From Psammoneis japonica (lineage: Eukaryota), in the NCBI GenBank assembly GCA_008632985.1, contig QPGO01000057.1, positions 62,001-126,000 on the forward strand: a stretch of DNA of 64,000 nucleotides, written 5' to 3'. The translations under genes and the position numbers were made by a program. How positions within the stretch are numbered: position 1 is the first letter of the stretch; each line of letters starts with the position of its first letter. Below are positions 352 to 61,517 of this stretch, piece after piece. The notes beneath the pieces are model-generated. The model was not told the DNA's origin, did no database searches, and saw nothing but the letters and a program-made list of their open reading frames with translations.

Positions 352-544
352 GCAGCTATATTCGGCATCAAGCCTTTTCTTGTTTTCTCACAGAACCGGG
401 TATTTCTTTAGGAGTGAGTGATTGCGAGCACACAATTTAATGATTGACTTTATAGCGTTTCTTTCATTAAAAAAAACTACTACGACTCATGTTGTCTTCA
501 GAATTACCTCCCTCACCGTCATCATTTGAAACATCTCTGCGCAA

Positions 545-980: not shown

Positions 981-3900
981 CAAATTGTCAACCATGTTGT
1001 TTGGCACTCACTGGTGTGTTGATCTTCATTTTAGCAACAGCAGCCATGATGAATCTGAAGACAATGGGCTGTGGAGATCTGAAAAAATGGTGGCACTCAC
1101 TCAGCCTGTCCTTCCATCAGATGATGTGTCAAAAATCCCAAAACGCAATGGCGCTGTTGTGACACACACCATTCATCAGACAGACATGTCCCTTGTGATG
1201 GACAATGGCAGTGCAGGGCTTGTTGACTGTCACAGTGAGTGTGATGCCCACTTGTGTGGTTGTCAGAACTGAGCTGAGGGCAAAGGTTAGCACAGCTTTG
1301 ATCCTTTGCCCAGTTGCTTGAAGCAGAGGCAAAAACAGCTTGACCATGGAGCTGTTCTCTGCACTGCATGATGTTGAAAAGGATGGAAATGACACCACTG
1401 CATTGTTGTTGTCATGCAACAACTTGTGCAGGCTTTGCTCCACTTGTGATGCTTGTGCTGAGCGGCAGCTTGTGAGCCACACTGTGACATTTCAGGGAAC
1501 TTGCTGTTGGGCATGCTTGGAGCAGATTCATGTGATTCAAGTCTGAAACAAAAACAACAACAACAATGACAACAACCAAAACCACAGCAACAACAATGAC
1601 ACAACAAGCAGCTCTTTGCAAGTTGCCATGGCATGCTTTTCTCTGGTGTGCTCTTGTGCTGCAATGAAATTTGCTGCTTTTTTGTGTTCATGTTGGGGTC
1701 ATGTGTCTTTTGCTCAGCATGGCATTCACATGACACAAGTTGCTGGTGCCCTTGGATTGCTCCATCTTGCCACCCCATGTGGAGCAGCAGATTTGTTTGA
1801 ATCATGGAAGTTGTGATGCTTTTTCAACATCATCTTTTTGCAGGGGGCACAGTGCTCAACTGGCTGGACATTGGCAAGGATTTTGCCCATGTTTTGGAAA
1901 GAGATCATTTCACACCCTGTCAATGCTTCCATGTTCTGGTCCAGGCATGTGCATGATGAGCAGAGCAGCACCATTCTTGGAGGCCACAAGTCCATGAATG
2001 AGCAGAAATCAAAAGCAGGATCCATGTCCTTGGTTGGTTTCCAATCCTTGCTCACTCATGCAGCAAGAAGAACCACCAAAGGCAGGTCCTGTTGTGGTTG
2101 TTTTTGTTCCTGCTGTGGCAGCCTTGCCTGTGCTTGTGCTTGTGCTCCCCTTCCATGACAATTGCCAAATTTGACAAAGGCCTCCTGAAATTGCTTGGGT
2201 GATGCCTTGTCATTTTGTGCAATGCAGAGTGAGCAGCTTGGTCCAGGCATCAAGCAGGGTGTGTTTGACTGCTCTTCTCCTTGCTGAACACTTTTTTACT
2301 TCCTGTTGCAACCCAAAAGCAGTGCCCCACAAATTTTGGAGCGCAGTGCTTGAGCTGCTGTCACAATTTTCATTTTCACCTTTGCAAATCTGATTCTGCA
2401 TCTTTTGATGCTTGTTGCAGTGAGACACTTCTGTTGACATTGATTCTGGTTGAGCAAGCAAGGTCATTTGGTGCTCTTGTTGTGCCAATGCTTCTTTCTC
2501 TGTTGTTGGTTGCTTGTCATTGTTGCAAGAGGAACTTGCAGCGGCGGTGTTGTTGTGGATCTTGTCCAAATCTGTGCTTGCATGAGGTGTTTTTTTTTGT
2601 TGATCTTTGTTGGGTGAAATGGTTGAAGGATGCACCAGTTCTTTCCATTCTTGTCATGTTCAATGTTGTCCAATGCAGAATTGCACAATGCACTCAGTGA
2701 GTTTGCCATTGGCTGAACAGAGCATCTGCCCCACACAAGTGCCAGGCACCACAAATGCAATTCCATGCATTTTGAGTGAGGTGTGTTGCACATGTCAAGT
2801 GAGAAGATTTCCAAATGGGCACTAAACTCAACCACAAAACTGTGAGCCTCTGGCATTGAGATTGCACCTTGCTGTTGCTGTTGGAGCATGTTGCGAGCAT
2901 TTTTTGGTCATCTTCTTCCATGTTGCTGGTGTGAACAGCAGAAGCTGCTGTCACACACCATGCTGGCAAATTTTTGATGAAGTTTTCTGGCTTGCAGACC
3001 TGGTGGCTGGCAGAAATGCTGGTTTGCCAATGGCCCTGATGGAGAGTTTTTGAGAAAGATCATTGACGGCAGATCATCCAGCCCCCCCCCCCCCCCCCCC
3101 NCACACACACACCAACACTTCACTCCATGTCCAGAGGTGGTTCTGGAAAGGGTGCTTCTTTGCTGGTGGGATGCTTCATTGCCATGGTTTTTGCACACAG
3201 TGTGTGTGTTGCTCCCTTTGTGGTTCTGGGCTCAATTTGGAGGCACTTGATCTCACTGACATGCACACCCACAAGATTGGCTGCCACATTGCAAGTGCTG
3301 CATAAAAAAAAATGTTGTTGGCATGCCAACAATGTCCACAACCTTGGGCAAGACAAAAACAAGACAAAATTGAGTTGCCAAAGCAATGATGGAGTCTCAA
3401 TTTTCCAGGACTGGTGGGTGTGGTTGATTGTCCATTGTCATGATGTGAGAGTGGATTTTCAATGCTGTGTTGTTGTCCTGTTGCTGGAGGACAACAAAGA
3501 TCATCTGTTCCTTCACAAACAATCATGTGAGACACACTTGCACTCATGTGCTTTCTGACTGCATGCCGCAGCTTTGACATTTCCAAAGGAGGAAAAAACA
3601 TGTTGCAGAAATGTGAAACAAAATGAATTTTTTTAGAAGGAGCACACAACAATCTGTTGAGTGAAGGTTGTTGCAGCACAATTTTTGCATTTCTCCACTT
3701 CACAGAGAAGTCCATTGTGCAACAACAACATGGTCAGCATTTTTTTAAATCTTCAAGAGTCTTGCTCAATCATGTCGGCATGGAGATTGACCATGGTGGT
3801 GGCTTGTTGTTCCAGCACCACATTCTTGACTTTGGTCTTGCAGACAAGGATGGTCAGAGACAAGACTGTGTCCTGCTTGATTGGCTTGATGAGCCCTCAA

Positions 3901-5087
3901 CAACCGTGCATGACTGGTTTCTTGCAACAGGAAAAGCATCCTCCTCAATTTCCTCACAAACTTTCTCATTTTGTGATTCTTCATCTTTTTCATCAAAACC
4001 TCCCCCCCAACACTCACTTCTCCACACCAATCATTTGTCCCCAGTGGTCTCAACAGCATTGTTGGTGAGGAGCCAACTGACAATGACCTCTGTGGCCTCA
4101 ACCCAGATGCTGTCACATGACTTCAGCAACATGACCCTCAACCTCACATTTGTTGGCAGTGCACTCATCAACACACAGAAGGAAGTGTGCTCATCTGGTG
4201 CCAGCTGTGACATGGTGACCAGTGACTGGGTCAAGGACAAGGCATTCCTGCCTGGCTCAATGGTTGACTGGCTCCAAGGCATTGACATGTGCAATTGCTG
4301 GGAGCTGTCATGTGAAGGTGTGTGGGATGACCACGTTGCCGATCTGGCACCCTGGAAGTTGGAATCACTCATCTGCGCCACATGACACAGCTTGTGTTTG
4401 ACATTGCACCAAACACCACAAGTGTGTCTGGCTTTGGTGACATCACCAGTGAGTGTGTTGCAGCAGAGGACGATGCAAGGGAACAGCAGCTTTCGTGCAA
4501 AAGAAAAGAAAATTGTGCAGCATGTGAGCAACCGAGTGGCAGAGCAGCAGCTGTCAATTGTGGTGAGAGAACATTTTTGAGTGCAGGACATGTTGGGTGT
4601 GATGTGCAGTGCTGCATGGAGCAAGGAGGCAAGCCAGTGCAATGATCAGCAAGAACACATGACAGCACAACTTCACATTGAAGCCGGCAGCGCTTTTGAA
4701 AACACATTGATGCAGACATGCTGGCAGTTGAATGTGATCTCTTGTCTCACTCTGCATTTTTGCACCAGAGGTGACCAAGAGCAAAAATGGTGGCAAACAC
4801 ACTGTGTGGTGCAAAGAACAGATTGAGAAACATGCTGTCCAGTCAAAGCTTTGTGCCAGTTAAGAGCCATGCTCTTGCTTGTTTCAGCACTCACTTTCTG
4901 GTCTGACTTGGCACTTGCTTTCCTCTTTGCTTTGATGCTTCAAATGGCAAACAATTTCATGCATGGCCAAATTTAATCCCAAGACACATTTGTTTGGCCA
5001 CCCCAGCTCCAGTTGAACAACTTCCAAGCCTGGTGCACATGTCTGCGAGGGGCGGGGCACAACTGGTGCAGCGCACTGGTGCGAGAT

Positions 5088-5595
5088 GAAAAAAACCAAA
5101 GCTGGCTGGGACAGAGGGGCCAGTTTTTGTCATTGGTCATGCATGCTCTGGCATGACATGACAGTGCAGTTGGCCACACCCTGCAGGAAAAGCTTTTGGT
5201 GGCATGCAGCCCAAAGAACTGAGAGCTGCTGAAGATCTCACATTTCAAAGTGGGCCCGAGACAGCAGCCACAGAGAGAGCTTGCAGCAGTTGTTGCCGTG
5301 TCAACATCATGACAACATGACTCACTGGCAGATTTGCTTGACCCATTCAACCACTGACTGCATGCTCAAAAAGCAACAACAACAAGTGGTGACCATGTCA
5401 CCAAACACTTCACAGTGGTCAACTTCCTTGTTGTCCCACACCTTTGGACTTGCAGCGGCCGCTGCCAGCCAAAATTTTTAAATGGAACATCCATGTCGAC
5501 TGCACAAACACTCCTGTGCCAGACATTTTGGCTGAGCAGTCTCTGGGAGAGTCTTCTCGGATGGAGGAGCGATGTTTCGTGATGCGGTCATCATG
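5088..5595 (+). repeat. Diverged direct repeat, copy B
   Basis: Colinear with 545-980, with indels and CA<->TG swaps. Confidence 0.85.
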
Positions 5596-5713
5596 AAGAA
5601 ACATCATTGGTGTTGTCGTGTTGAGATAATTAAAAATCCGAAAGTCAAAATCGTCTTGCCTTCACCCCTTTCTCCTTCGACTACAATCGGCACCGCGTAC
5701 CGTAGGCCTACTT

Positions 5714-18499: not shown

Positions 18500-21400
18500 T
18501 TTCTAAACAGCATCATTCGGCAACAAAATGAATCAGGATTGACTGACATTGTGATGAAATGCCAATGTGAGAAAAGGAAAACAGAGGGAAAGAGTTGCAC
18601 TGCATCTTTCTGGAGCAGCTGACATTGTCGCGTTCTCTCCTCTTAGAAAAAGCGCGCTTCTTTGGGGGCCGTTCAACCCTCTGCACAAAAATCGCATGCC
18701 TCCAAGATTTTGAGGCAAACACACGCATTGCCATGTCTTGAGATGAAAGTGTGGATGCCACAAATTTTGCAGCTTTGAGCATGGCTGTGGCTTCTTCTGT
18801 CTCACTTTGTTGGCTCTCCTCAAGTGGGTGGGAGAGAAGCTGTGTGTTGTTTTGCATTTCTCCTCTCATCTGGAGCAAGTGGCACACACACCTGTTTGCA
18901 TTTTTTGGCAAAAGGGATGATGAACAGAACAATTTGCTGCCCGGGGCTTTTGATTGTGTCAACAACAACGCAAAAAAAAAGGCACTCAAGCAAGATGCAA
19001 ACTGTTGCACACACAGACAATGAGCATGTGGTTCACCTGAGACTGGTTTGGATTTGGACAAGCCAGTCATGCTGACACATGCTTTGTCATTCTTCAGGGT
19101 GCATTGACACTCCAGCAATGGAGCCCATGGGAGCTTGGGTGTGCTGTGAAAGCCCAGCGCACATGCACAATGTCAGATCTCACAAGCTCTTCTGGCAAGG
19201 CTGTCAATGACTCAAATTCAAAGTCTGCAAAGGATCAGTCAGTTGCTCCAACACTGAAAAAAGTGCTGGGAAAGCAACCCAGGGCAGTTTGTGCTCCTCA
19301 TTTCAATCTACAGGAGGTGTGTGCCAAAATCTCAACAAGACAAGAGAAGCCCCCTGTTGCACTGTTTCTTTTTTAAAATGCCCAAGAGAGTTGACTCATC
19401 AGAGTGTCCATCTGCCAGCAGCTGCAGAACTGCCACAGCAGAAACCACATTGAAACAATTGTGCAAAGAGCCAGAGGTGCACAGCAAACTGCTGGCAAAT
19501 GATGTGTGGCTGCAACTCAACTGCTGGAGGCACTGGTGGCTTGTTGCTTTCTCCTTCTTGAAACTTGGATGGTCAAAGAACAGTGCTTCACTGTGATGCA
19601 GAGTTGTGCTTGTCACAGCCTTTGCAGCCAGAGCCAAAATGACAAAAAGTGCTTTTGTGGCTTTTCTGCAGCATCTGGCAACTGTTTTGCCCATGCATTT
19701 TGGTGCCAGGTGTTGTCGCTGTCCTTGCACAAAACCCAGAGAGATGTGACAGTTGCGCACAAAGTGCTGCAAGAGACAACTCACTTGCACAGGTGCCACT
19801 TGCTTGTGCCAAGAGACTTCAAATGCTGCAACAAGCACTGCTGCATGCTTTGGAGAGAATTCTGCAGTGTCAGCATCAAGCTTCCTTTTTTCTTGGGCTG
19901 AAAGCTGAGAATGTGCAGCAAGCCTTGATGCGGAAAACTCAGAACAAAACATCATTGACCCCAGATGTCCAGCAAAACAACCACAAGGCTCCAACAAATT
20001 TGCTTGCTCATTGACACACACCAAGAGCTCCAGTCAATGCTTGCACCATTGTTTCTCACAAGCAGTGGTGGTGGTGGCAGGAGCTTGACTTTTGCCAGTG
20101 AGAAGTTTTGCTTTGTCAGAGAGCAGAGCTGCTCACAAAACAAAGAGTCACAGCTCCAGCTGTCCAGCCACGCTGCAGATTCTTGGCAGCTCTTCCAGTC
20201 ATGGCAGCACACAGACATTGCTGAGACAAAAAGACAACAAAATCTTTGCACCCTCAGATGTTCATTCCAGAGATGCACATCTTGGCAAGTTGGCTGGCAA
20301 TGGGTTCTGAGCCTGTCATCAAAGGATTTTTCATCTTGCAACTCTGCAAAAGTGGAGCACCATTTTGTTCTCAGTTGGGTTCTTGAGAGTGGTTGATTTG
20401 CCAGCAGTCTGCCTTGAAATGTGAGGTGGCAATGGCAGCATCTCACAAGTGGTGCTCTTGCAAACAAATGTCAATTTGGCCAGTGTGCAACAAACTGCAG
20501 CACCCAAGAGGACAGCTTTTGAAGCCATGGCTGTTGTTCCACAAACTGTTGTTGAGAAGACAAAGCAACACTTTTCCCTTGGAGACAGCAGCAACAATGA
20601 GGAGCTCAAAGTTGCTTGCATGACAGATCCTCTCAAAGTGATCAAGGACAACTCTGCAATTGCTGGGTTGATTTTCTCAATTTCTGGATTCTGTTGAGCA
20701 CTGGATGATCATCTGTTTTAGCTGTTTTGTAGACTGCCCAGCTCTGGACAGCAATGCCTGGGTTTCTGCACAATCCTTTGGCTCTTGCCAGCCAGCCTTT
20801 GACCTTGAGCACTGCCTCCAAAACAGCTGGCAGCACTTGTCCAAAATTGTGCAATGCAGCCATGCTGGCTTGCACTGCCACTCCTTCTGCAAACTTCCCA
20901 GTTTTGGCTTTGCTTGGTTGTCTTGTGGGTTTGAGTGGATTGTTGCTTCTTTGGGCATGTTGTCAGTGCTGGCTGCAGCTTTCCATTTGTGTTGCATCCA
21001 AGGGAGCAGACTTGTCTTTGTTTGAGTTTGCCATCAAAGGCAGACTCCATGGGCTGATCTTCAACTGGCAGTCAAACCCCAGAGGCAAGAGTGCACCCAG
21101 GCAATGAAAAAGCTCTCTCAGTTTTCTTTGCCAAAGCACGGAGGCTTCCATGTGACCACAAATCTCTGAAACCCACGACGCAATGCTGTGCAATGAGAAA
21201 AAGGAAACAGGTCATCAAACTGACTCAACAAAATGACAGATGGAAAACAATTTGCTGTTGCTCGCTGCTTCACCTTTGAGACAGTCTCCAACTTTGCACT
21301 GAAAGCAAGTGCTCCCTCCAGAGACAACAGAGATGAGTGCCACCCCAGTGAGCACAAATCAACAGGGTGTGGTGCAGTGAGGGTGTGCAAAGGAACAAGG

Positions 21401-21600
21401 GGAAATCTTTTGTCAGTGCACAACAACCTGCAATGTCTGAGAGGACAACTTGAAGCCACTGTCGTCATTCCAGCCACTGGCAAGTGGTGCTTGAGAAATC
21501 TGAGCAACAATGCCACCCTTGGAAGACAGTGAAAATAACAAGAGGAGTCCGAACTTGCATGGTGGACCATATCTGGGTGAGCAGAGTCTAGGGTCTTGGA
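18500..21600. other. TpA/CpG-depleted hypermutated block 2
   Basis: Near absence of TA and CG, strong CA/TG excess, nearly Tyr-free overlapping ORFs; no recognisable product. Confidence 0.85.
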
Positions 21601-23849: not shown

Positions 23850-25000
23850 TAAACTGATCGCTTGGCAGCAGTCATGGAGCTGCAGGTGTTGGAACAATTG
23901 CATTTCTGGTTCAGCAGCTTAAGGTTGATTGTTGTGGAGTTGGTTGTCCCCCCACAGAGCAGAGAAATGCTGGTGTGAACAGGCTCAACACACGCAGCAA
24001 AACTCCTCGCTTGTCTTTTCCACTACAAGCCCCGCGCAGTTGGAGCAAGTGATGCAATGATCTTGGAACAAGAAAGGATCAGCTTGTGGTTTAACAGAGT
24101 GGCTTTTTTGTCCACAACTGGTGCCCCATTTGCTCTTGACAGCTCAAGAAGAGCTCCCCAGAGTGGGCGACAACTTTCTGGTGCCAGCACAAGCACGACC
24201 GCCTCTGTGTGATGTGGCAACTCAGCAGTTGCTCATGGCACAAGCTGCATGTGACACCATTGCAGCAGTTGCTCATGCCTGCTGCTGACATGAGGAAAGC
24301 ACTGGTTCTTGTCAATCAGCGCTCTCGAGCTCTCCAGCAGAGAGAGTCATGGTGACAGCATCGTTCCTGCACACATGCGGGGGTGTTGTCAGGTTGTGAG
24401 CAAAACTTCCCTTCAGGAAGCAGTGCTCCTCTGACTGAAAAAAACTCTCAGTGCGAACACTCTTTGCTTCCACATCTGCAACCTCCTCATTGGCATCTTT
24501 CTTGATGCAAAAAACAAGCTGGGGGGGTTGTTGGTTGCATCGTCAACAACGACGGCGCGTGTGCAAAATGGCTGCTGCTGCATTTTTTGGTTGCTGTCCG
24601 TGGCTGCTCGCACAGCACTTGTCACCACACACTCCTGCATGCCTCAAAGAGCTGCAGCTGGTGGCATTGTCAGCTCTGATGCCTGTTGCCTCAGGCACTG
24701 TCACCACATGACATGCTGTGTTTTGTGGGCTGGGTGCTGCTGCCACCGTGGCAGTGGTGCCTGCTGCGCTTGCTCAAAGAGGACACAGGCTGATGTTGAG
24801 GACTGGCGCAGCACTCAAACAAGATCCAGACAAGGCTGCGCAACACAACAGGAGACTCCAACCCCACCCCACCCCCCAGGACACGTGTCAGCCCCCCACC
24901 CCACCCTCTGCAGAGACAACTCAAGCTGCACCGCCTCCGTCTCTCCCTGGCCTGGCTGCGCTGCAGTTCTTGTGGATACACAGCACAGACGCCCAGCAGC
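23850..25000. other. TpA/CpG-depleted hypermutated block 3 (between divergent genes)
   Basis: TpA nearly absent; CpG reduced but partly retained. Confidence 0.8.
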
Positions 25001-34847: not shown

Positions 34848-35079
34848 CGTTTTGTCACGTCATGGTTGCCAAGTGTCAAGATGAAACACCACACAGTTTG
34901 TCTTGAGGCAGATGACCGAATAGGAGCTCGTAGCTCGTACGTCATCGAGGTTCGTGCCCGCAGTTGCCCGCAGAAGAAAAACATCGTTTTCATTGACAGC
35001 CATGTGTGGTTGCTTGGCTCAGCACCATCCGGTGAGTCGATCGTCTCGTTCTCATTGATAACCAGATCTGCTAGAGTTA

Positions 35080-38000
35080 AGTCATTGAATGTCATCTGCA
35101 CACGATCACCATGCAGACCTGAAGGCTTGGGTCCTCCTTTGCACTTCTTTCCTGTGTGCGCACTTGATTGCTGCGCACATCTTTGGAAGTTGGCCAGAGG
35201 CAGAACGATGGTTGCCTGTCAAATTGGCCCGTGGTTTGGATGGGGATGCACCACAACAGCCAGCAAACTCATGTTTTTGCATGTGCATTGAATGCTTGCA
35301 CAGGTCCATCAATGGGGAAATTGTTGTCACCAACTGGCGCACTTTTTGACCACTGCTGCTGCTTGTGTGTTGTCTCTCCACGCACTCTGTGGCCACAGTG
35401 TGAGGGCCAGCCTCTGCACATTTTTGAATCCACACTGAGTGACATTTGTTGACATCCTGCACCAAGATGGTGTGCATTGCAGATGGCAGCCTTTTTCACA
35501 AATGTCACAAAGTGTTTCAGACCACTTGAGTGGCTCCTTGAGCATCTCACATCTGAACCCATGTGCAGGCCCAACAGGCTTTTGGGCTGTCGGCCTGCTT
35601 CAATCAGCAACATTCTCCACACAGCATTTTAGACATCATCTTGCTGAGTCATTTCTTTGCAACTCACACTCTCTTTTCAGATTCACACTTCCTGCTTTGA
35701 GCAGATGGCATGAGCAAATGGAGAGAAATGCAGCAAGATTGAGAAGCCAGGTTTGCAAGATTGTCAATTGCTTGTTCATTTTGATGATGACTTGGCTCTT
35801 GTCATGCAGCTCTTGTCCCTTTTTAGATGCTGCAAGAGCACTCAGTCTCAATGTTGTCATCAGCTCTGGCCACTTTGCACTTGTCTTCTTTCAGACACAA
35901 AGAAGCTTCTTGACATGTGGCAAGAGCCTCAATGCTGCCCCACCCCCCTCATTGCAACAGCAAAAGCTGGCAAATGATTTCTTGTGGCTTTCAAGTCCTT
36001 GTTCAAGAACACAAAAGCCAATCAAGATGCAAGTGCAATCCAAGCCACCCCAATCCACAAGACATCAGCATGTCTTTGCTCTTGTGTGGCCACTCAAGCT
36101 CATTTGACTCCAAAAGTGTCATGGAAGAATGCAAAACTGCTGACATTGACTTCACCAGAGTGGTGCCTGAGAACTCAAACACTTGTCTGCATCACAAAAC
36201 ATTCTCAAAGCAGCTTCACTCAGCAAAGAACAGCTGAAGCAAACACCAACAAAAAGCTTTTCAGCTCTCCATTTGAACCAAGCAAGAGTGCTCATCCAAT
36301 GTTCTGACATCTGCATTGCCAAGAGATCAGCAAGGATCCACAGAGCTGTGTCTGCATTCAATGTTTTGTTCATGTCTGACAAGGCCAGCCATCTCCAGAA
36401 AAAAAGAAAGCTGTCGCAGGCTTGACTTGTCATTGCAGTGCCACACACAAGATGTGGTGGCAGCTGCCCAAGCTCCAACAGCCCCCATTGAGCCCCACAC
36501 TGCTTGGGGAGGACAGCATTGCTAACTGACTCTCAGGCAGTTGCTGCTTGGTCTGTTGCACCAAAAGTGGCACTCCATGCTCCAGCCCCTTTTGCTCGCA
36601 AATGAGCGCTGGTGCACAGAGAGCCTGTGCTCTGAACAAGGTGCCTTTTGCTCCAATGTGTGAGCGGGAAGTTGATGGGGCAAATCTTCCTCAAAGCTTG
36701 GTGTGAACTCTGCAATCAATTTGAGACTTTGGCTGCTCAAAAAGCTCTGCTGAGCACCTTTCATTTAAGTTCCTGAGAGTGTGAGCTGTGCCAAGGTGCA
36801 TCCACTGCAGCTTTTTTGCTCAACAATGTGAGCAGCAAGTGCAAGAGTTTGTCTTGAAAAGGTTGGCCAAGCATTTGTCACAGCCAGTGTCAAAATGTGA
36901 CTTGTCCTGTGTAAAGATGGGCAACTCAGCTGCTCCAGAGCCACTCACTTGGGAGCACTCTGCAGCACCATGGTTGGAAAGCAGTGTGCTTGCCTCAACA
37001 ACTGCACTCACTTCATTTCATCTGCAAACAAGCCTCTGAAGGATTTCTCATCTGCAAAGCAATTCAAGCATCATCTTGTTTTTCTTTTCCATGCAGTCTG
37101 TCTGCATGTTGTGTCTGCTGACTCATCATGCAATTCCTTGGCACAGCTTCAAAATGCTGCACCATGAGAATGACATCTGGGCCATTGCTGTTGGAACTCT
37201 GTTTTTGCATTGTGGTCATGCTTGTGTCCAAAATGTCACCAGTGAGAAGTGCTGATGATGTTGCTGCCCTTGCATGGTTAGCGGGCAGCAAAGGAGAGCA
37301 CTTTTCCACAAAACAGAACAAAAGTCCTGCGCAAAGCTGTTGGTCATTGCAATTCTGCACAGAGTGCAAAAAGGAAGCATTTTCCTCAGGATTGACTGCA
37401 CACATGAACAGCGGACAGGCTTTCTGATCTGGCCCCTCTCTGGGGCACTTTCCTCTCCTTTTGTGTCAACTCCAGACATTTCACAATGCAGCGTGTGCAT
37501 CTCAGCAATCAACCAGAAGCAGACAAACACCATGGCACACAATGCACACACCTCAAAAGCAAGGTTTCACACACAGCATGGGGCTTGGCATCACAAGCAG
37601 GCTCTGCTGCTTGCTGCAAGGTCCACAACAACATGACAGACATCAGTGGACACAAAACCATCATGTTCTTTTTTTTGTTTCTCTCTGGTGAGTTGCACAG
37701 TCCAACCAAATGTCACTCCTCAAAGAACAGGTCATGGGGGGTGAGAGTGGTTTTTGAGTTTCCCTGCTTCTGTCGTGCCCCAACTCTGCAGCTGCTTTCA
37801 ATTTTCTCACTGCTCTGCAATGTGGTTGACATCAACAGGCGCTGAAGGTTTGGGGTGCATTGGTTGATTGCGTGCTCATGCAGGTTGCCTTCAATCCCCA
37901 GCTTGCCAAAAAAAGAAGTGTGCTTGATTGGCAACACATCCAAGCAACTCCACAAAGTGGAAGAAATTCTTCTCCCAGTCATTGAGTGCCCAAGACACAC

Positions 38001-39560
38001 AAAAGAAGTGGGAAAAAGATCAAGAGAGGAGCAGGACTTGTTTTGCAAGAAGAATGGCAAGACACCAATGCCACCATGCTTGCTTTTGAAACAATTAGAG
38101 TGCAAGCATCTCACAGCCATCAGCACAAAATTGTTTGGTTTTACTTCCATGAAGTTGCATCTTGTGCGGGGAGCTGCAACTTGGCCAGCACACAAGACTT
38201 GGAGCACAAAAAGTTGTTTCCAAATGAGTCTTGATTTTTTGTTTGAGTCCCTTCATTTGAAAGAAGGAAACATGACATGACCATGCTGTCATTGACAACA
38301 ACAGACAAAACTGTGCTGAGAGCATCAACTGGATCCCACAAGGAACGGAGCACAGAGTTGCAGCAAGCTGATGATTTCTCACAAGCTCTTGCTCCAGCCA
38401 AGAACCATCCATGCCAAACTGCCACAGCAGCCCATCTTGTCACTGCAGTGCTGGCTCAACCATTGCATTTTGGTGATGATGAGAGTGACAAGAGCATGAG
38501 TGCCACCTTTGCATCCATCTCATGCTCACTCCTGTCTCAGCTTCAAGCTCCTGATGAGAGCAAAAAAAGCAGCACAAAGACTGCTCATCAAGGGGGGCTT
38601 TTTGTTGCATCACCACAAAGCTCTGTGGCAAACTCCAAAAATGTGCACCTCCCATGCAGAGGTGCAAGGAAATGTGGGATGAGTTGGTGTGACAGAATGC
38701 CATTGCTCGTGCATGGCAAACCATGCTGGAGCTCCAGGTGGGAGCTTGAAATCTGCAGTTTCTGTTCCTGGTGTGTTGGCTTTGTCATCTCTGACTTCCT
38801 TGCACACTCCATCCTGCAGTCATCTGACAGCATGTCCTTTTTGCATTGGCCAAAATGGAGCAGATCCATCACCATTGCTTGTTGATCTGATCTCAACAAG
38901 CCATTTTGCATTTTCCAGCAGCCAGCAGTGTGTGTGAAAGGGGCAAAACAGCACTCAAACAACCTGTTTGTCATTTTTGGGCAAGCTTTTGGCAGATGAC
39001 AAAGCTGCTCTGGGCGGCGGCTCTCCAGAACCATCCCCAAACCAAAATGTGGTCAAAGGTGGGGTCAATTTTCAGCTGTGCTGAGTTTCATCTGCGTCTC
39101 AAAGCATTGGCCGCAAAAGAGAAAACTGCAGTCCAGCACTTGTGTGAACATGGGCTTGTTCAGATTTTTCTAAAATGATGCTCCACACTGCAACCCACAC
39201 AGTTGTGTTTGTGTCATCTGAAACAAAAAAGGCTCAAAGTGGGCTTTTCTCTGTTGACAGAGCAAAAACACTTTCTCCATCGATCATCCTTGACTTTGGT
39301 GTGAGCCACCACCAGCACATGATCAGAGCATGTGTGTGCTGAGAGAGAGCAAAGAGTCAGCTCTCGTCCCATCACCACCCATGCTGCTGAATTCTTGGAA
39401 AAGAGAGCAAGGCATTTGTCAGCATGTCATTGCTGTTGCTGTCAATGAATCCAGCAGTGGCAAAGCAGCAGCTTTGATGGCAAACTCCAGAACACAGGCA
39501 GCATCTGGCTGCATTTCGTGCATGCAAAAAAGATGATCACATGGGTTGTTGCCTGAAGAT
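35080..39560. other. TpA/CpG-depleted hypermutated block 4 (between divergent PEX1 and Z-ISO)
   Basis: Same dinucleotide signature; surviving TA mostly in TTA/TAA context. Confidence 0.9.
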
Positions 39561-39863
39561 CCAATCGCGGATCGCGGGCCAGAGGGATGCTGGAGGCAGT
39601 GAAAATAAACCGTTTTCAATGTGGAATTTTGACCACGAGGTGCTTTTTGTACTTGTCTACTGTGCGCCCGTTGTCTTACACGGCAACACGGCCGCGCGGC
39701 GGCGGGGCGGCGGGGGCCGACTACACCCCGGGAAGACAGAGGTTATGAGCGAAAAGATAGCAAATTTTATGAAAACTATTCAGAAGCGGATGTTTCATTC
39801 ACACTGACGTTTTGCGGGTGTTTCGCATCATCTTTTCTTTTTCACCCATTCAAACGATCCACC

Positions 39864-51923: not shown

Positions 51924-53519
51924 TCTTCTAGCTAGTAGAAGGCGTCCAGGTGCCGGTGATGTGATGCGATGTTTCTTGATGACGACGCTTCTGTTGCGGT
52001 GATGCCATCCTGGCGATAGTCTCTAATTGATAGATAGATTCGTGGGCAAAAACGGTCTGAAATCTGTCCTTTTGAGAACGTAACAACAAAGAGTGAAGTG
52101 CATGTGGGGCGGGCACCATGATGCTGCTCTTCGGATGCCACATTATCTCAAAATCAGCATTTTGCACAGCAGCATGGTGTGCCCACAGAGGATGTCAGCA
52201 AGAAGAAGAGGGGTGACAGTGCCACAAAAGATGGTTTGCCAGGTGTTGGTCATGCACACTTCTGGTTTTTCTTGCTGTTCGAGGCTCGGTCAGAGTCAAA
52301 AGATTTGGGTGCAGACACGGGTGGTGGCTTGGAGCTCTGTGTTTTTGCACTGTCTTTGGGCAAGTCTGCCTGCAAAAGGAAGAAGCCAAGCAGCACCATT
52401 GGCTTTGCAGCAGCAAAAGAAGCCTCAAACAAAGGCAAAGGGGGGCTTCAGAAGTGGAGAGCTCTTGTGTGACCATGGAGTCAAGGGTGCCTGTGTCTTA
52501 GAGGCCCGCCACAAGGCACAAGGCAGGTTGGTGAGCTGACATGTTGGCTGGTGGCACTGACATCCATCATGGTGTGTGTGTGTGGTGTGGGGGGGGGGGG
52601 GGGGGGGCATGTCAGCCAAGCTCATCTTCTTCAAATTAAATGGTGTGCTCAGCGCTGCTGTCATCTCTCCAGTGAGGGGACATTTTTGTTGGTGCTGAAG
52701 GGCCAGTGGCTGGGGCCATGGTCCACTGCTGTGGTTGGTTCTCAGTGCATTTGCACTTGGTGTGGTGCACACAGTCAAGCCATGTGGTGTTGTTGAGCAA
52801 GAAAAAAAATGAGAACAGGCCAAACTGAAAAAGGAGTGGACAGCATCTGATGATGTGAGAAAGGTTGCAAGACCCTGCCAGGGCCCCAAGTGGTGCAAAA
52901 GGCAAGCTCAGTGATGCAGCGCGGCATTCTCCTCCTCAGGCACAGCTGCCAGCTGCCCTGGCTCAGGCCCACAGAACAAAAAAACTCTCCTGTCAAAACC
53001 CCGGGGCAAAAGACCACCCCCACTCAACAATCTTCCAGCTCACGGCTTTGCTCAGACACAAGCTGGACAACAGCTTCACAGGTTTTTCTTGTTGGTTCTT
53101 TTCATCCATTGCTGTTGTTCGTTCATGCCCCAGCAGCTGGCCATTGGAGTCCTCCCAAAATGAGACCCGACACAAATTAAGACCGAGAGGCCATCAAGCT
53201 CACTTCAAGTCTGCAAGGTCCAAGCTCCGAACAACTGTTGTCATGACCCAAGTGTGGCGATGAAGCATCACAGCAGACTCCAGATGCTTGTTTTGTGCCA
53301 ACTGCAACTTCTGGCAGCTGCTGGCACTGACAGACTGCTGTTGAGGTGCATTCATGCATGAAATGGAATGAACTGTTTCACACCACTGCCACTGGACCAC
53401 ACTGTGTCACACCCCCATCAGACTGATCTTCACTGCAAAGGAGCATCGGATGATGCCCCCTTGTGGGCTCGGTTCTTGCTCACACTCGGCAGGATCTTCC
53501 ACTTGGGTTGTGGCATCAG

Positions 53520-56500
53520 ATCAGTTGCCAGTGCCATCTGATTGAATCGTCACACTGCAACACTTCTGCACAAAAACATCCTTCTTGTGCTTGCTTTCTT
53601 TGAGAAATGCTTTGTGGTCAACAAACAGAATGGCACAAAGGTCTTTTTTGGTGACCCACTTGTCAATTGTGCCATTCTTTGCCACAATCTTTCTTGAAGC
53701 CTCTGGGTGCAAAATTTGGTGTTCCTCTTCTTCTGCACTCGTCTTTCTTTCTGACGCAGCTTTGTCAGTGCGCCTTTTCTCTGCAACAGAAGATGCCAGC
53801 TGGAGATGGTTCTTGAGTCTGTCCAACACTTTCTTGTTGTTTTCAAAGCAACAGTGCGCCAAAATGTCACCAAGGAAGTTGAGCTTTTGCTCTGGAAGCT
53901 TCTGAGTGGCGCAACTTGCGCCAGCAAGCTCCACAATGTTTCCACCACAAACATCAATGGAGCTGGGTGCCAGAAGCTCTTGCTGAGTGCTGGTGATTTC
54001 CACGTCAAGAGCCGTGCTGTGCAAAAGTGGCTCATTGCTCTTTGTGACAACAATTTGGGATCTCTGCAAACAAATTGGGTCACATGAGCAAATGCTTTTT
54101 TGTGCAAGCACCCACTGGCAACCCCTGCGTGTGTTTCTATGCGTGCTCTCGTGCTGATGTCGCCCTTTTCAGACGGCGTTTCGCTGAGTCCCCTGTCAAC
54201 CTTTTGGCCCCTTCTGCCATTGGCACACCCTTTCATCTCCATGATGTGCAACAATTTTCAGTGGAAAACGACTGGCATCGACACTTTGTGGCTCGCATGC
54301 TTGTTGTCTTCTTTGGCAATTTTTTGCGGATTCGGTGTGATTTCTACACAGAATCCAGTGCAAATTCTACGCGCTCAAGAAATGCACACCGACAGTCATC
54401 ACGTCTCCGATGCGATCAACTTCCATCCTTGCCTGAAAGCCCCCAACAATTTCTTTTGCTCCCACTGGCTGCTCAAGTTCTTCACCTCATGTGGTGAAAG
54501 TGCTGTCCCTGTTGTGGCGCCTGCGAGTGTTCGCATGGACAAACCATCGGCATCATCTGACGACCGTCCATTTGCTGCACAGATCGGCTTTTCCACGCAA
54601 GATTCAGCATCAATTCTACGTGAGAATGGACATTTCTTCCGACGACCTTCTCGTCACATCACCAAGACTTCCTGTTTCATCCTTGCAAGTCACGAACATC
54701 CCCTTTTCTGCTTGCTGGCCTGCCAAGATCACTGTTCCGAGCAGTGAACTGCACATTGTTGTTCTGGTTCATGCAATTGTGAAATTCAATCAGTCTTTGT
54801 TGAAGACAAGATTCTCCCTCAGAGGCAAAGATTTTCTCTCAGAATGTGCGCTGACTTTGAATTCTCTGCTTGACTTGATTGTCCTTTGCTGTGGCAGTTT
54901 GGGTGCCTTGCATCCTCTCTGAAAGAAAGCAATATCTCATTCTGGTGCAATTTTTCCTTGACCTTTTATCACTGGTGCGCGTCGCTGCAAAGCGGCGTGT
55001 TGGCCGACTGATCGCACGACATTCTGCCGCACTCTCCTCGCAGGGTGCACTGGAAGTGTGGGTTGGCCGGCGCCGGTGTTGCTGGGCAAAGGTGCAACAG
55101 CACTTAAAATTAGGTTTTGGTTTTTTTTTGGGTCACATGAGCAAATGGAGCCTTTCCATGCAAGCCTGGTGGCTTCAACTGACAGTGGTGGAGACCATCT
55201 GTGACACGGCTGGCTGACTCCCGGCCAGCTTCAATCTTAACATTTGCTTGCAAGGGCTGCTCCTTGTCACTCTTGTTCAGTGCCTCCTGGTCAAGGTGAT
55301 CCAGGTTCTCTTTTGCAAGCTTGCAGCAGACTCGCAAGTTCTGGTGGTCCTGAGGGGGATCTTGAATGTCTCCACCAGAAGGTTTTTGATGCACTCAAGG
55401 GTGAACCTGCCATGGTCATCAATGATTGAACCACAGCCTTCTTGGTGACTGGAGGAATCCCATGCCACCAAGACAGAAGAAGCTGGTGCTTGTTGGCAAC
55501 AGTTTCAGGCTTGAAGGCCTGTCCTGCTTTGAGGAAGAGATTGATCTTTTTGCACCACTTTGGAAAGGAGACCCCAGTCTCCTTGGATCAAGATTCACTT
55601 TTTGGAAGGAAGATTCCCAAGTCTCCTTGCTGGTGCCACAGAGACAACAGAGGCCTGCTGACACAAGGCCCCACTGATCGTTGATGTGCTTGGAGCACTT
55701 GATCCTCTGGCCATGCCCACGAAACATGGACATTCCTTCTTGAGAGAGGGTGTTGTTGCTGTTGGCAACAAACGAATTGAGCCCTTGATTTACATGGGAC
55801 ATGTCCCCTTCCTCTTTCAAGCTCTTGATCTTGTTGCTGTGTTGACACTGCACTGCACACAGCATTTTACAGTGCACGCCAAATCCATTGAACATTTCTA
55901 GAAACCACCACTGTGGATCATCACAAACCACAGGAAGACTTCTGTGTCCTTTGACAAGAATGTTTGGGTCAATTGCATCCCGTGCTTGCTCAGTTGTGAA
56001 AGCATTCAGGATCACCGCAATCATCAACCCTTCCTTTGCTCTGTGCCTTGCAAGAAAACTGTCAGCAAATCTGACCCCCTTCATTGCTCACCAGCCAAGC
56101 ACCACGTGGTTGGGCCTTTGTCACCACCGCTGGATTCCCATGTGAACCATCGTGGCCATGGCATGTTGGTTGCTTTGCATCTTTTTGTGTTTTTTCCCTT
56201 GGCACCAACAATTTTGGCATTGCCGCCAAAAGCCACAATGCACATTTCATCCAATCTGCCAACAAAATGATGCACAACTTGCCAAACGTCTTCGCTGTGG
56301 CTCGGCAAAGGACAGCAAGCAAAAAAATGATGAACAATGGTCAAACAAAAAACAGTCCAGCATGCAAGTGACAAACAATGACATTCTCACCTGTTGCTTG
56401 GCAAAGGCCAGCATTCAAGTGACGCAGCTCCACAAAAGCCGAGTCGACCAACACGTGCCAACGGTGTTGCTGCTCCACCGTGATTGCCGTCCGTTTTGCA

Positions 56501-56900
56501 GTTGTGGCCTGAGCTTTCATGGCGTCATTCTTTGGTGTTGAAGTGTTGTTTTTCAAAACAGTGTGATGAAGCATTTGCAATGCTTGCTTGCACTCTAGAT
56601 CAGGGCTCAAATCCTGCACCAAATCAATGGTTTCTGGTGGTGTCCTGCCATCATTCCTGTGATCACATCTTGCCAGAGTCTAGCCAATGAGCTCTTGTTT
56701 GTCCTTTTCTGACAAAGGCTTGTGACCAACACCCACACCAATTTCTCAATGCTTTTCCTCATCTTCTTTTGTGCAAGATTTCAGCTGGTTGCAGCTCATG
56801 TTGACAACTCACGCAAACTCTCGTAACCTGCAAGCCTCTCCATTTGAGCCACAATGTCGGCCGGATTTGTTGAGCCACTCTGACACAGCCTTCTTCATTT
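53520..56900 (-). mobile_element. Degenerate pogo/Tc5-like (DDE_1) DNA transposase, interrupted by a ~1-kb segment
   Basis: Fragments LDEMCIVA..KIVG, GDKGPT, NAFTTEQ, FLEMFNGFGVH and KEEGDMSHVNQ resemble the N.DET, DG..SH and SH..Q..D motifs of DDE_1 transposases; many stops and frameshifts; no TIRs identified. Confidence 0.55.
54075..55147. repeat. ~1.03-kb segment flanked by a perfect 20-bp direct repeat
   Basis: ttgggtcacatgagcaaatg at 54075-54094 and 55128-55147. Confidence 0.75.
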
Positions 56901-59900
56901 TAGACAGATTCAGCTCCACTGACCAATTCACTTGATGTGTCCAAATGTGAGCACAGCACCGCCGCACACACCCCGCTGGCACCTCTTTTTTGAAGATGGA
57001 GCGATCATGTCACCAACAATTTTTGCCATGTTGAAAGCATGTTTTCTCTCACTGGGTGGGGGTGGCAGCAGCACCACCTGCATGGGCTGTCTGCACTCCA
57101 ACAGAACAAGGGAAGAGCACTGCTGCTCACTTCTTGCTCCATGGAAATCACAGCTTGCCACCCATGTGATCTCTCAAGATTGATGCCACCAAAACATGAA
57201 AGATTTTGCAAAGGACTTTGCAGCATGCTTGAAATGCTCTGCAGCAGAGCAGCATCTGTCGGTGCTCCTCTGTGATGCACTCAAAGCTGCCAAAACTAAC
57301 ACCGCCACTGACAATGCTGAGGGAGGAAAATTGGCGAAGGCAGCTGTGACGGAGACCCACTGTGACTTGTCTTGCATGGCAGTTTTCATGAAAACCTGGG
57401 AACTCAATTGCCTGAAAACCTTCAGGAAGGAGCCTGTGCCAGCTCTCATTGTTGATGAGTTCCATCATGATGCAGAGACAAGAACATGGAATGTTTTCAA
57501 ACATTGCTGAGAGATGCAGCATTGAGAGGAGCAGTTGTTTTTCTCATGATGAAAGAATGGGCTTCCAAATTGACAAAATTGAGCACGAAGACCAAACCCC
57601 TTCTCCTCACAATGTGGCAATGAGGGGTGCAATGGATCCAAATGTTTTGAAGGAACACCCCAGTGGAGTTGCTTGTGCTGGAAGGTCCAACAGTTGCAAA
57701 AAATGGTCCAGCCTTCATGTGAGAAAAATGGCATCAAGCCAAAGGATGTCATTCCAGACAACTCTGGGCTTGCCCCTGGCGAGGCCGTCAAAGTCATCCT
57801 GGAAATGTCTTGGGCTGAACAGCCAGGAGCAGGTCCATGAGCATTGTTGACTGGTTTTGAATGCTTGTCAGCTGAAACAATTGGTGGTCTCAAGGTGGCA
57901 CCACACAGTTTTTTAGATTGTGCACAGTCTCCATCTTTAAAATTGAACAGCCACACATGTCAGAGAAAAGATCTTGTGCATTCTCATTTCACCCACTCAC
58001 TGTGACTGGCAGCACACATTTTGGAGGTCTTCTTTCCTCTTTGTGTCCCACGATGATCAAGTGATGACATTGGTCAGTGAGACACTCTCTCATCTAAATC
58101 AAAGCTGGAGTGAGGGCAAGCTGCGCTCCTTGAGTGCGCACATTTCTGCACTGATGTGTCAGAGTGCAGCAGCAACTTCTTCCAAGGGCTCTGAATTGAC
58201 TTGCACTGATTGACAGCTGAGCCTGCAACACGAACAAATCACCTGACTCTGGATTGGCTGGCATCAGCAGCTGACCATCTGGAAAGAAAGAACAAGATGG
58301 AATTTGGTGGGAAATTTCTTGAACAGGAAGGTGGCAATTGTGCCTCCACATGGGTTCACTTGGGGAAAATCAAATGTTTTTGTCATGTGACCAATGCAGT
58401 GCACATGTCAACATTGTCATGTGAAAACTGCACAAAATTGTCTGACCAGCATTCTTTTCAACAACTTCTCTCTGATGTCCTCAGGCCCAAGCAGCCAAAA
58501 TTCTTGGGAACTGGTGCTTGTGCTCCAGCTGCTTGTCAAGGTCTAACTTGACAAAAACTGGCCAAAGAGCTCCTCAATGACATGTTGGATGCTTTGGACA
58601 CTGTGGCAGATGATCCTGCTGGTTCTCAACTGGTGGCACAAAGGCCATCTGCACAATCTTGATGGGAATCAAGTGACAACTCAGCTTTCCTGGTGCTTCC
58701 TTGGCAAACATTGCATCAGCGAGAGCACTTGTGCTGCAAGTGTCCAGGGCCATCACAAACAAAACACAACAACCCTGAAAGGTCCTTGCAGTTCTTCACA
58801 TGGTTGTCTTAACCTCAATCTTTTTGCAAAATGTGCCCCCGTGATTTGCAACTTCATGGCAGTTGAGAGAAACCAGCATCATCAATCTTGCAATGCTTCC
58901 TCCAAGCTTCATTGCCAGAAACTCCAAGATGTGCAGGGCACTCCTTCTCAAGGTCCTTGACAGCAAAAGCATGAAGACAGTGAGCAGGTGCATGACCTTG
59001 CAATCAGATTTCCTGATGAGATGGCAGCAGAAGGTTCCTTCCCAAACAACTTGATGAGGTCTTGGACAGTCTTGGCAAAATGATCTTTGTCCAGGATGGC
59101 ACTTGGGCTGCTGGGCAAGTCATTTCACTGTTGAAGGCAAAGGGAGCACTCAATGGAATCCACAGCCTGGTGGCCATGCTGAGATGCATGGTGGCAGCTG
59201 CAGCTGAGTGTCAGTCTGCTTGTGCCAGTTGTTCAATTGAGAATCACCAAGATGAGCTTCATGGGAAAAGAGATGATGCTCCCCACCATGAGCAGGTGTT
59301 GGAAGAGGTGAAGACACATTGGACAAGCTTGCAGGCATGGAGCCACCTCAGCACACTGCTTGAGGGTTTCCATGCCCACTCCAGCAGCAGCATTGCACCA
59401 GAGTCAAGCATGGTTCTGGATGGAAGATTCGTTGAAGGGTGGGAGTGCAACACAGATGATTGCCAAAGGAGTGCAACACAAAGATCACCATTGGATGGGA
59501 TGTCATCTAAAGAAAACTGTTGGGTGGCAACAAACTCCATGCAAGTTGATGCCAGCACTTTCATTGGGATTAAAACCACTTGGGGGATGCAAAATTGACT
59601 CACACAGAATGTGATGGCAGAGACCTCTCTTGAGGTTGCACAGTGTGATTCAGAGGATGAAAAATGGGGCAAGGGGTGCTGCACTCACCAAGTCATTGCA
59701 CATTGTGTCCCTGCACAAAACAATTGTTGAGACCGCATCTCTTGGAAACATTCAAAGATGTTTTGTGAGACCAAAGGGAGCCGGTGGTTGTTGCTGCATG
59801 TCTCACACAAATTGTGCCTTTTTTGCTTGTGTCAGGGGTGAAAGCATTGCTCTGTGGCAGGCAATTGTGTCTCTTCCATTGGGGATGGATTTGCCTTTTG

Positions 59901-59938
59901 CACAACACAAACGTGGGCTTCTTCTGGTCATGACTCAG

Positions 59939-60552
59939 GGGTGGTGGGACATTTCATTTTGATTTGGGCCGCACTGGCAAGGGGGGCAGGGACAGATCTG
60001 CTGTTGCAAAAAAGGTGGGCTCTCTTGCACTGACAATGTCATGCCACACAATGAGTGTTGTTTGATCTTGTTCACACATGGTCATGACACACAGCTTCTC
60101 TGATCATGCACTGCAGCAAAACAGCTCTGAGATGGTCAAATTGTGGAGAAAGGAGTGGTGCGTGTGTTGCTGCAGCAGTCTCCAAGTTAGTTTCCATTGT
60201 GCTTTTGGTTTTTGCAGGATTGGCTTCATCAGGCTGTTCCATCAGGAGCACAACATCCTTGCATCCCCACTTTGCATCATTGGACATGTTTGCCCCTGCA
60301 ACAGTGTCAAAGTCAAACGACCTTGCCGGAATCATTCGTCATTCCCACTTTGCACCAACAATTTTCACGGTGGCAATGCCGACAAGCACATCACCAACTT
60401 TATAATTTTTCCCGTTTTCTCTGCGTTTCCACCTTCTGCCAGTTCCTGTGCTCATGCTCCTCTCCCCGCTTTGATCTCTTCAAACACAACACCAAGGAGC
60501 TTCTGCGTTTTCACCTTGTAAAAGGAAATGCGCTCACGAAATCCTGAAAACT
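59939..60552 (-). pseudogene. Hypermutated tandem partial duplicate of the PDZ gene and its 3' flank
   Basis: Colinear with 60553-61345 apart from two internal deletions; ORF remnant MIPARSFDFDTV.GA.MSNDAKWGC.DVVLLMEQPDEA matches the intact gene. Confidence 0.95.
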
Positions 60553-60892
60553 GGTTGGTGGGATACTTCATTTGGACTACGTTGGTAAGAGGGACAGGGA
60601 TGTGCTATTACATAAAAGGAGGGCTCTCTTGTACTGACAACATCATGCCGTACGGTACAATGAGTGCTGTTTGATATTGTTCACATGGTCGTGACACGTA
60701 GCTTCTCTTACCGTGCACTACAGGGACACAGTTCTGAGAGGGCCAAATTTTGGAGTAAGGAATAGTGCACGCGTTACTGCAGTAGTCTCTAAGTTAGTTT
60801 CTATCGTGCTTTCGGAGGTGAACTCAACGATGCATACAGATGAAGACTAGTACGAGAAAAAAGTGTTCTTGCGTCTTCTTTGAAGTGTTTTG

Positions 60893-61517
60893 CTACTGCT
60901 GTTGTTTCCATGGGTTGTCGAAGGGTGGCTCGAAGAACTCAAGGAACGCATCGGTTTTTGCTGGATCAGCTTCGTCAGGCTGTTCCATCAGGAGCACAAC
61001 ATCGTCGCATCCCCACTTTGCGTCATTGGACATGATCGCCCCTACAACGGTGTCAAAGTCAAACGACCTTGCCGGAATCATTCGTCGTTCCCACTTTGCG
61101 CCAACAATTTTCACGGCGGTAATACCGACAAGCACGTCACCAACTTTGATTTTTCCTGTTTTCTCTGCGTTTCCGCCTTCTACCAGTTCCTGTACATACA
61201 CTCCTCTCCCTGCTTCGATCTCTTCAAACACAATACCGAGGGGCTTCTGCGTTTTCACCTCGTAGACGCCCTTGGGCAAGTTAAAGATCTCTGGGAAAGC
61301 ATCACGATCTTCTTGAGGAAAAACGCTCATGAAATCCTGAAAACTCTTATAGAAACGAAATTCCCCCTTTCCAAAATTCAACCCGGCATTCCACATGCCC
61401 GCAGTAGAAAGCTGTTGAGAGCCGTTGTCGGGAAGCGACCAGGCTTGATGGTTGGGTCACAATAAAGGCTTCTGTCAGTGAAGCCAACCCAAAAAGAATA
61501 CATAGAAGGCGAATCAT
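60893..61517 (-). CDS. Plastid-targeted PDZ-domain protein (apparent frameshift ~61400)
   Basis: MIRLLCILFGLASLTEA-F presequence; KPLGIVFEE...GVYVQELVEGGNAEKTGKIKVGDVL PDZ motif. Confidence 0.8.

Follow-up and report, generated by a model that had tools for sequence, protein, structure and literature searches.

We describe here a 64,000-nucleotide stretch of the genome of the diatom Psammoneis japonica (GenBank assembly GCA_008632985.1, contig QPGO01000057.1, positions 62,001 to 126,000 of the forward strand), hereafter the window, in whose coordinates all positions are given. The window is intron-bearing eukaryotic DNA with a G+C content of about 48%, and approximately 40% of it is free of the dinucleotide TA. 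Near its right-hand end, an intact gene for a PDZ-domain protein stands beside a dead tandem duplicate of most of its own sequence, and this duplicate forms the right-hand end of an island (52145-60552, 8.4 kb) that has lost nearly all of its TA and most of its CG. As such, the same ~600 bases are present once protected and once exposed, and comparing them shows in which direction a mutation pattern runs in a diatom, together with its spectrum, its relative rates and the sequence rule that it follows.

A PDZ gene and its dead tandem copy

The features of the pair are as follows.

59939..60552, minus strand: copy A, a dead tandem duplicate without the 5' end of the PDZ gene (it starts at codon 18) and with the 3' flank (alignment to copy B)
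60552..60553, no strand: tandem-duplication junction, which is the island boundary as well (alignment, composition, read contig)
60553..61345, minus strand: copy B, the intact duplication unit, comprising most of the coding sequence for the PDZ protein and, at 60553-60892, the 3' flank (alignment)
60812..60950, no strand: 139-bp stretch of B missing from A (local alignment)
60893..61396, minus strand: intact PDZ-domain open reading frame (ORF) of 167 amino acids (Pfam PDZ, E 4.6e-07)
61267..61315, no strand: 49-bp stretch of B's coding sequence missing from A (local alignment)

Local alignment returns exactly the limits that an initial annotation had assigned to the two units (59939-60552 and 60553-61345), with 80 mismatches (63 transitions and 17 transversions) in 598 aligned positions. 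Relative to B, copy A has suffered two deletions and an insertion of 2 bp, and it contains two TGA stops. In B, a short tcgg/cgg repeat flanks the 139-bp stretch; since B's ORF reads through this stretch, it is no intron. The ORF corresponds to the conserved C-terminal portion of a ~210-amino-acid diatom protein that has 423 homologs, the best of them 72-78% identical; the named homologs among the matches listed belong to pennate and other diatoms. Just upstream of the ORF, positions 61355-61492 are represented by two read-contig alleles (depth 25 and 31), which differ by substitutions and 1-bp indels and include a TA/TG difference at 61406.

The duplication itself is real. A 769-base read contig of depth 62 (sequencing run X1) spans 60311-61079, and with it the junction, without a single difference from the window, and read depth is ~59-62 across A, B and both flanks, while the heterozygous stretch 61355-61492 splits into 25 and 31. 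Full depth over both copies therefore places the duplication on both haplotypes, and the mis-assembly that the initial annotation had named as a danger can be set aside, the junction being bridged by reads at full diploid depth. Contigs built from read k-mers likewise reproduce the TA/CG-free sequence, and 59000-60333 is single-copy by read depth. Run X1 may derive from the same sample as the assembly, and is not independent of the assembly data. Within 59000-59436, the window and a full-depth read contig differ by five transitions (TG/CG at 59411 and CG/CA at 59431 among them) and two single-base indels, which reflect errors of the assembly or else differences between strains.

Copy A is the derived member of the pair. 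Thirty-one codons differ between A and B, 17 of them non-synonymously, and at all 17 most of 60 diatom orthologs (the first 60 of the 120 diatom homologs listed) carry B's residue, with 0-1 carrying that of A. Base by base, all polarisable changes are derived in A (6/6 TA losses, 7/7 CG losses and 7/7 other changes), which supports TA and CG, and not TG and CA, as the ancestral state. Eight CG changes and one TA change, all synonymous, could not be polarised, nor could the flank sites, which have no outgroup; by composition, B's flank is of the non-island type and A's flank of the island type.

The fates of B's dinucleotides in copy A were counted over the whole pair and over its coding and flanking parts.

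TA, whole pair: 25 sites, 2 kept, 10 to CA, 9 to TG, 4 other
CG, whole pair: 29 sites, 8 kept, 11 to CA, 9 to TG, 1 to CC
TA, coding part: 8 sites, 1 kept, 7 to TG or CA
CG, coding part: 23 sites, 8 kept, 14 to TG or CA
TA, flank: 17 aligned sites, 1 kept, 12 to TG or CA, 4 other
CG, flank: 6 sites, 6/6 lost

In total, copy A holds 3 TA and 12 CG, where the aligned part of B holds 25 and 29; the densities of both dinucleotides in B are those usual outside the islands. Per base, transitions affect 19/54 positions in TA and 20/61 in CG, as against 24/483 elsewhere (Fisher p for the excess over other bases 6.6e-10 for TA and 1.1e-9 for CG). About half of all transitions (31/63) are A to G or T to C. 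The changes fall on both strands and are scattered, their strand order forming 20 runs where 20.4 are expected (P 0.52), and three sites show the double change from CA to TG. The initial annotation had offered the pair as an internal control of just this kind, with changes concentrated at TpA and CpG and other positions largely conserved, and these counts bear it out: the changes are overwhelmingly transitions from TA and CG to TG and CA, its quoted sequence examples are all found in the alignment, and its claim that TpA loss is at least as complete as CpG loss agrees with losses of 23/25 TA and 21/29 CG. Its hand counts for the coding part are reproduced exactly for TA (7/8) and to within one or two sites for CG (~13/21, here 14/23). 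For the flank, its single surviving TA stands, and its ~20 TA sites with ~13 changed to TG or CA compare with 17 aligned sites and 12 here.

The limit of the affected tract is abrupt. Mutated sites in A reach as far as 60517, and B's first TA is found at 60564, so that the island boundary falls within at most 47 bp of the junction. Copy B, 11 bp from the junction, is untouched, its non-coding flank included: all 17 TA of this 340-bp flank are intact in B, and 16 of the 17 are changed in A.

Islands poor in TA and CG

The pair is the edge of a wider pattern, since copy A belongs to one of several islands in the window.

506..5626, no strand: island 1, whose limits coincide with direct terminal repeats resembling long terminal repeats (LTRs) at 538-1022 and 5080-5624
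18645..21570, no strand: island 2, TA/CG-free and gene-free (composition, ORF scan)
24093..24976, no strand: short island of ~0.9 kb, no TA, CG about two thirds lost (composition)
35079..39606, no strand: island 4, TA/CG-free and gene-free (composition, ORF scan)
52145..59938, no strand: the island of copy A beyond copy A, gene-free and TA/CG-free (composition; no Pfam family in its ORFs)

From the surrounding DNA to the large islands, TA falls from ~35 to ~2 per kb and CG from ~55 to ~4 per kb, and TG and CA rise from ~75 to ~115 per kb each. The edges are sharp to tens of bases (~50 bp). Observed/expected ratios (O/E) separate the islands from both coding and non-coding surroundings.

Islands: TA 0.04, CG 0.19, TG 1.80, CA 1.84
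Long ORFs outside islands: TA 0.52, CG 0.98
Remaining non-island DNA: TA 0.70, CG 1.00

The two losses are not strictly coupled. TA numbers only 0-4 per 250 bp in the short island and in two stretches of copy A's island, 54150-54650 and 54900-55150, and in the latter two CG is partly kept (13-14 per 250 bp). TA loss therefore runs ahead of CG loss and is partly independent of it.

With TA absent, TAA and TAG stops and tyrosine codons are impossible, and long empty ORFs result: the only stops in the islands are TGA, and 114 stop-to-stop ORFs of at least 90 amino acids run across the six frames, rich in C, H, W, Q and M. In practical terms, such false ORFs may mislead gene finders and composition-based binning. 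No Pfam family reached its cut-off in the 108 of these 114 ORFs that were scanned; one of them (1415-1687, minus strand) has weak sub-threshold matches, for example to synaptobrevin (21 bits against a cut-off of 26.4). The longest (3627-4382, 252 amino acids) had no hit in a phmmer search of 1.84 billion proteins, an Rfam search returned no matches, and a tandem-repeat search found nothing in the region. The case for a transposon origin therefore comes only from the LTR-like repeats of island 1. These repeats were considered as a second control for the spectrum and proved too diverged (446 positions with many indels and 82 mismatches, of which 48 are transversions). They contain five complementary TG/CA doublets, as expected if ancestral TA or CG had decayed independently in each repeat. 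Position 3101, also within island 1, is the sole ambiguous base (N) of the window.

Duplication as such does not bring the mutations with it. A dispersed duplicate pair (13313-13658 and 25392-25737; 71.5% identical, or 85.5% when coded as purines and pyrimidines) lies outside the islands. Past copy A, the island DNA matches no other part of the window, and a self-comparison in purine/pyrimidine coding brought out no further duplicate shared by island and non-island DNA.

The flanking bases (R, purine; Y, pyrimidine) reveal which TA sites are lost. For the four large islands, densities relative to non-island DNA are:

RTAY: 0.005 (1 versus 432 sites)
RTAR: 0.026
YTAY: 0.050
YTAR: 0.27
Trinucleotides: TAT 0.01, TAC 0.03, TAG 0.09, TAA 0.17

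RTAY is thus depleted ~200-fold and YTAR just ~4-fold, against 25-fold for TA overall. These ratios fit a target at the adenine of TAY, because RTAY presents that target on both strands, RTAR and YTAY on one, and YTAR on neither. TA loss is aimed at 5'-TAY-3', with A changing to G, which refines the earlier reading of the sequence. The bases C and T following TA behave alike (0.03 and 0.01), and sites followed by G or A are also affected, more slowly. Among residual island TA, YTAR makes up 35/51, compared with 268/1510 outside (p 8e-15) and 72/316 in non-coding non-island DNA (p 3e-10), and the excess holds in each of the four large islands (8/11, 2/4, 7/9 and 18/27). The expected products are enriched accordingly, TGY/RCA to ~1.75 and TGR/YCA to ~1.35, with TGC/GCA highest at 1.90. 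At the one-sided sites of the A/B pair (YTAY and RTAR), the predicted side has changed in 10/12 (p 0.019). A dipyrimidine-biased origin of new TA was considered for the residue and rejected as a sole cause, as by calculation from these counts it gives at most ~52% YTAR where 35/51 are observed. CG loss follows a different pattern, with ratios of 0.14-0.22 across the four flank classes and extremes at GCGC (most retained, 0.53) and TCGA (least, 0.05). TA loss being trinucleotide-specific and CG loss only weakly dependent on its flanks, two processes are distinguished.

Their tempo was estimated from the coding part, where selection holds B. Background transitions in A amount to 0.039 per base, TA loss to 2.08 and CG loss to 1.06; per dinucleotide, this is ~27 times background for TA and ~14 times (13.6) for CG. 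The equilibrium predicted from the pair (4.3 TA and 8.4 CG per kb) lies within twofold of the islands (2.5 and 9.5). The whole looks like a slow and continuing change, site by site on both strands and near equilibrium, and not like a burst, because the equilibrium fits, CA-to-TG doubles occur, some sub-islands are graded, the residue is biased to YTAR and strand runs are lacking.

A proposed pair of transition processes

We favor, with a probability of about 0.7, the reading that decay of CpG carrying 5-methylcytosine (5mC) and a TAY-directed A-to-G process have acted together, both continuously and both confined to domains. Copy A would be a promoter-less tandem duplicate that landed in a silent, gene-free chromatin domain, where its sequence would have been altered in situ by the same pair of transition processes to which all islands of the window owe their composition. 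The first would turn CpG into TpG or CpA at ~14 times background, best explained by deamination of 5mC in methylated silent DNA. The second would convert A:T to G:C at the adenine of 5'-TAY-3' (equivalently, the T of RTA on the other strand) at ~27 times background, almost eliminating RTAY and sparing YTAR. TG and CA would be a common sink, because they lie one transition from both TA and CG and are themselves no target. As to confinement, the evidence argues for a chromatin domain with its limit set by the unit that was inserted or died, or else by the point where the active PDZ transcription unit ends.

The first half of this proposal has precedent. Decay of methylated CpG, as in vertebrate genomes and methylated transposons, likewise converts CG to TG or CA on both strands (here at a ~14-fold excess), is restricted to silent DNA and proceeds more slowly at GC-flanked sites, its rate depending on the flanking GC content. 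If the islands are methylated, the CG half would require nothing novel. However, this chemistry cannot act on TpA, which is here lost faster and more completely than CpG, and it leaves the conversion of 19/25 TA to TG or CA unexplained. According to Hoguin 2023 (PMC9998398), silent transposons of Phaeodactylum tricornutum are CpG-methylated through DNMT5a.

The second process may be enzymatic. Its sequence-specific pattern favors, though at modest probability, the conversion of adenine into hypoxanthine within DNA, carried out by a deaminase with a need for a 5' T and recruited to silent chromatin; the alternative is a mutagenic modification of the paired thymine at RTA, and sequence does not separate the two routes because TA is self-complementary. 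A comparison is offered by the tRNA adenosine deaminases TadA and ADAT2-ADAT3 (target U33-A34-C35) and by base editors made from them, which resemble the diatom pattern in the A-to-G outcome, the near-obligatory 5' T and the favored 3' pyrimidine; in TA loss, the 5' T is present by definition. They differ in that their natural substrates are RNA loops, and we know of no natural activity of these enzymes on adenine in genomic DNA. Should the second process be enzymatic, a natural editor of adenine in DNA would be indicated. A route through N6-methyladenine (6mA) is disfavored: according to a recent study (bioRxiv 10.1101/2024.10.28.620566), P. tricornutum DNA contains 5mC and lacks 6mA, the mutagenicity of 6mA seems limited, and known eukaryotic 6mA lies at ApT in active genes. 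Ultraviolet-induced dimers are an unlikely cause, as the spared T has a 5' pyrimidine (YTA), the reverse of the dimer signature.

It is conceivable, if rather doubtful at present, that the two processes together form a heritable genome-defense or silencing system, in which a chromatin-recruited TAY adenine deaminase and 5mC deamination would irreversibly clear TA and CG from insertions that have been silenced and from duplicates that have died. Fungi are known to direct point mutations at silent DNA, through repeat-induced point mutation (RIP), and CpG decay is known from methylated genomes. Were the defense reading true, RIP would gain its first adenine-directed counterpart, also the first beyond the fungi, and TAA and TAG stops, TATA boxes and AATAAA signals would be removed as well. 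A literature search found no account of a joint loss of TpA and CpG to TG/CA in islands, in diatoms or elsewhere (it possibly did not cover the species' own genome paper), no regional A:T-to-G:C process of 25-fold to 200-fold strength and no counterpart of the TAY half.

Several points weigh against the two-process reading. The evidence comes from one 64-kb window, and the status of the islands as methylated heterochromatin is something that we infer. Neither a deaminase nor a DNMT nor a TET/JBP protein was found among the 52 non-island ORFs of the window that were scanned, we know of no natural DNA adenine deaminase of eukaryotes, and the 6mA route is disfavored, as set out above. Spreading heterochromatin alone does not predict a boundary at most 47 bp from the duplication junction. 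CTAG, a YTAR site, is strongly depleted (ratio 0.078), and the TAY rule is therefore graded, not absolute. Finally, the pattern (TA at most 3 together with low CG in 500 bp) occurs in 0/3994 windows of 500 bp at 80 metagenome loci of PDZ homologs from other algae (435 kb); 66 of these windows are low in TA, and every one is CG-rich (at least 48 CG). The pattern is therefore either not general to diatoms or lost from metagenome assemblies.

Alternatives, precedents and neighboring genes

We consider it unlikely that a genome-wide mutational bias is at work and becomes visible only in silent islands, TA and CG being preserved elsewhere by selection or by transcription-coupled or open-chromatin repair. 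The exact coincidence of the islands with gene-free stretches speaks for such a bias, as does the heterozygous TA/TG site at 61406, outside the island. Non-coding DNA outside the islands, however, stands at an O/E of 0.70 for TA and 1.00 for CG, and selection cannot hold all 17 TA of B's non-coding flank. The version that invokes only open-chromatin repair is less readily dismissed; it departs from the two-process reading solely in where the specificity sits.

Quite improbable, too, is a burst of the RIP kind, in which the tandem repeat would have been recognized by homology and mutated within one or a few sexual cycles. There are real likenesses to RIP in ascomycetes, with its irreversible, context-specific transitions in silent or duplicated DNA, its sharp limits and its stop-killed gene copies. 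Basidiomycetes, for their part, show RIP-like hypermutation at CpG/TCG. In the diatom, the mutated tract stops at most 47 bp from the duplication junction, and island 1 ends at LTR-like repeats. Moreover, DNMT4, which is related to fungal RID and whose function is unknown, is present in many diatoms according to PMC9998398. RIP (the subject of the RIPCAL paper, PMC2621366) changes C to T at CpA and thereby creates TpA, whereas here TpA is destroyed and half of the changes are A:T to G:C. RIP also mutates both copies, whereas in this pair A alone is mutated and B keeps its 25 TA and 29 CG; because B is untouched, a symmetric homology-triggered mechanism is excluded. Furthermore, RIP is a premeiotic burst, whereas the diatom process looks continuous: strand-coordinated runs are lacking, and steady-state counts fit a continuous process. 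As noted, the island DNA past copy A lacks a partner elsewhere in the window, and the diverged pair 13313-13658/25392-25737 sits outside the islands.

Three further explanations we regard as very remote. The first is one-off RNA hyper-editing, by which copy A and the islands would be retro-copies of RNAs edited from A to I and from C to U. The duplicated unit, running from codon 18 to ~340 bp beyond the stop, is indeed shaped like a 5'-truncated cDNA, and RNA adenosine deaminases typically edit an A that has a T on its 5' side. Yet the copy lies in tandem beside its own source, with no poly(A) or poly(T) and no A/T tract at its end at 59939. The order of loss (TAY before TAG before TAA) shows a 3' preference for Y and not the G of ADAR; the contexts in question are a 3' G for ADAR and TC or CC for APOBEC. 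A past burst would not maintain a low steady-state TA with a YTAR bias. ADAR hyper-editing and APOBEC activity on retroelements (the subject of PMC4866542) leave similar clusters of deaminase transitions fossilized in mobile-element copies. These arise on one RNA or cDNA strand in coordinated runs, whereas the diatom changes were made in place on both strands, equally and without runs.

The second is artefact, either a haplotype mis-join that fakes the duplication or base modifications that were misread as G/A or T/C when long reads were assembled. In its favor, the best DNA run may come from the assembly's own sample, and the window and read contig disagree at the five transitions and two indels of 59000-59436. 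Against it stand the 769-base contig that crosses the junction without a difference, the even depth of ~59-62 beside a truly heterozygous stretch that splits into 25 and 31, the k-mer-built contigs that reproduce the TA/CG-free sequence, and the indels and 17 transversions that also separate A from B.

The third is selection for TA/CG-free islands, through avoidance of nuclease or binding sites or through RNA-level suppression of CpG and UpA. Simmonds et al. (2013, PMC3829696) describe suppression of the same two dinucleotides in RNA viruses and cytoplasmic mRNAs; that suppression is mild, selective and at the RNA level, whereas in the diatom mutation has purged silent DNA of them almost completely. 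What is affected is ORF-less spacer and a dead gene copy bearing stops and frameshifts, its depletion (25-fold for TA, 200-fold for RTAY) far exceeds known selective suppression, and the graded TAY pattern with matching enrichment of products fits a mutation rule.

Outside the islands, the window holds ordinary nuclear genes. The 52 ORFs scanned, of 90 listed for this DNA, encode among others a kinase, Tic22, an amino-acid transporter, PEX1, monomeric isocitrate dehydrogenase (IDH), a triose-phosphate translocator, phosphoacetylglucosamine mutase and ABCF. Amid them, the ORF at 16295-16993 (minus strand) carries an HNH endonuclease domain (HNH_5, E 2.8e-09).

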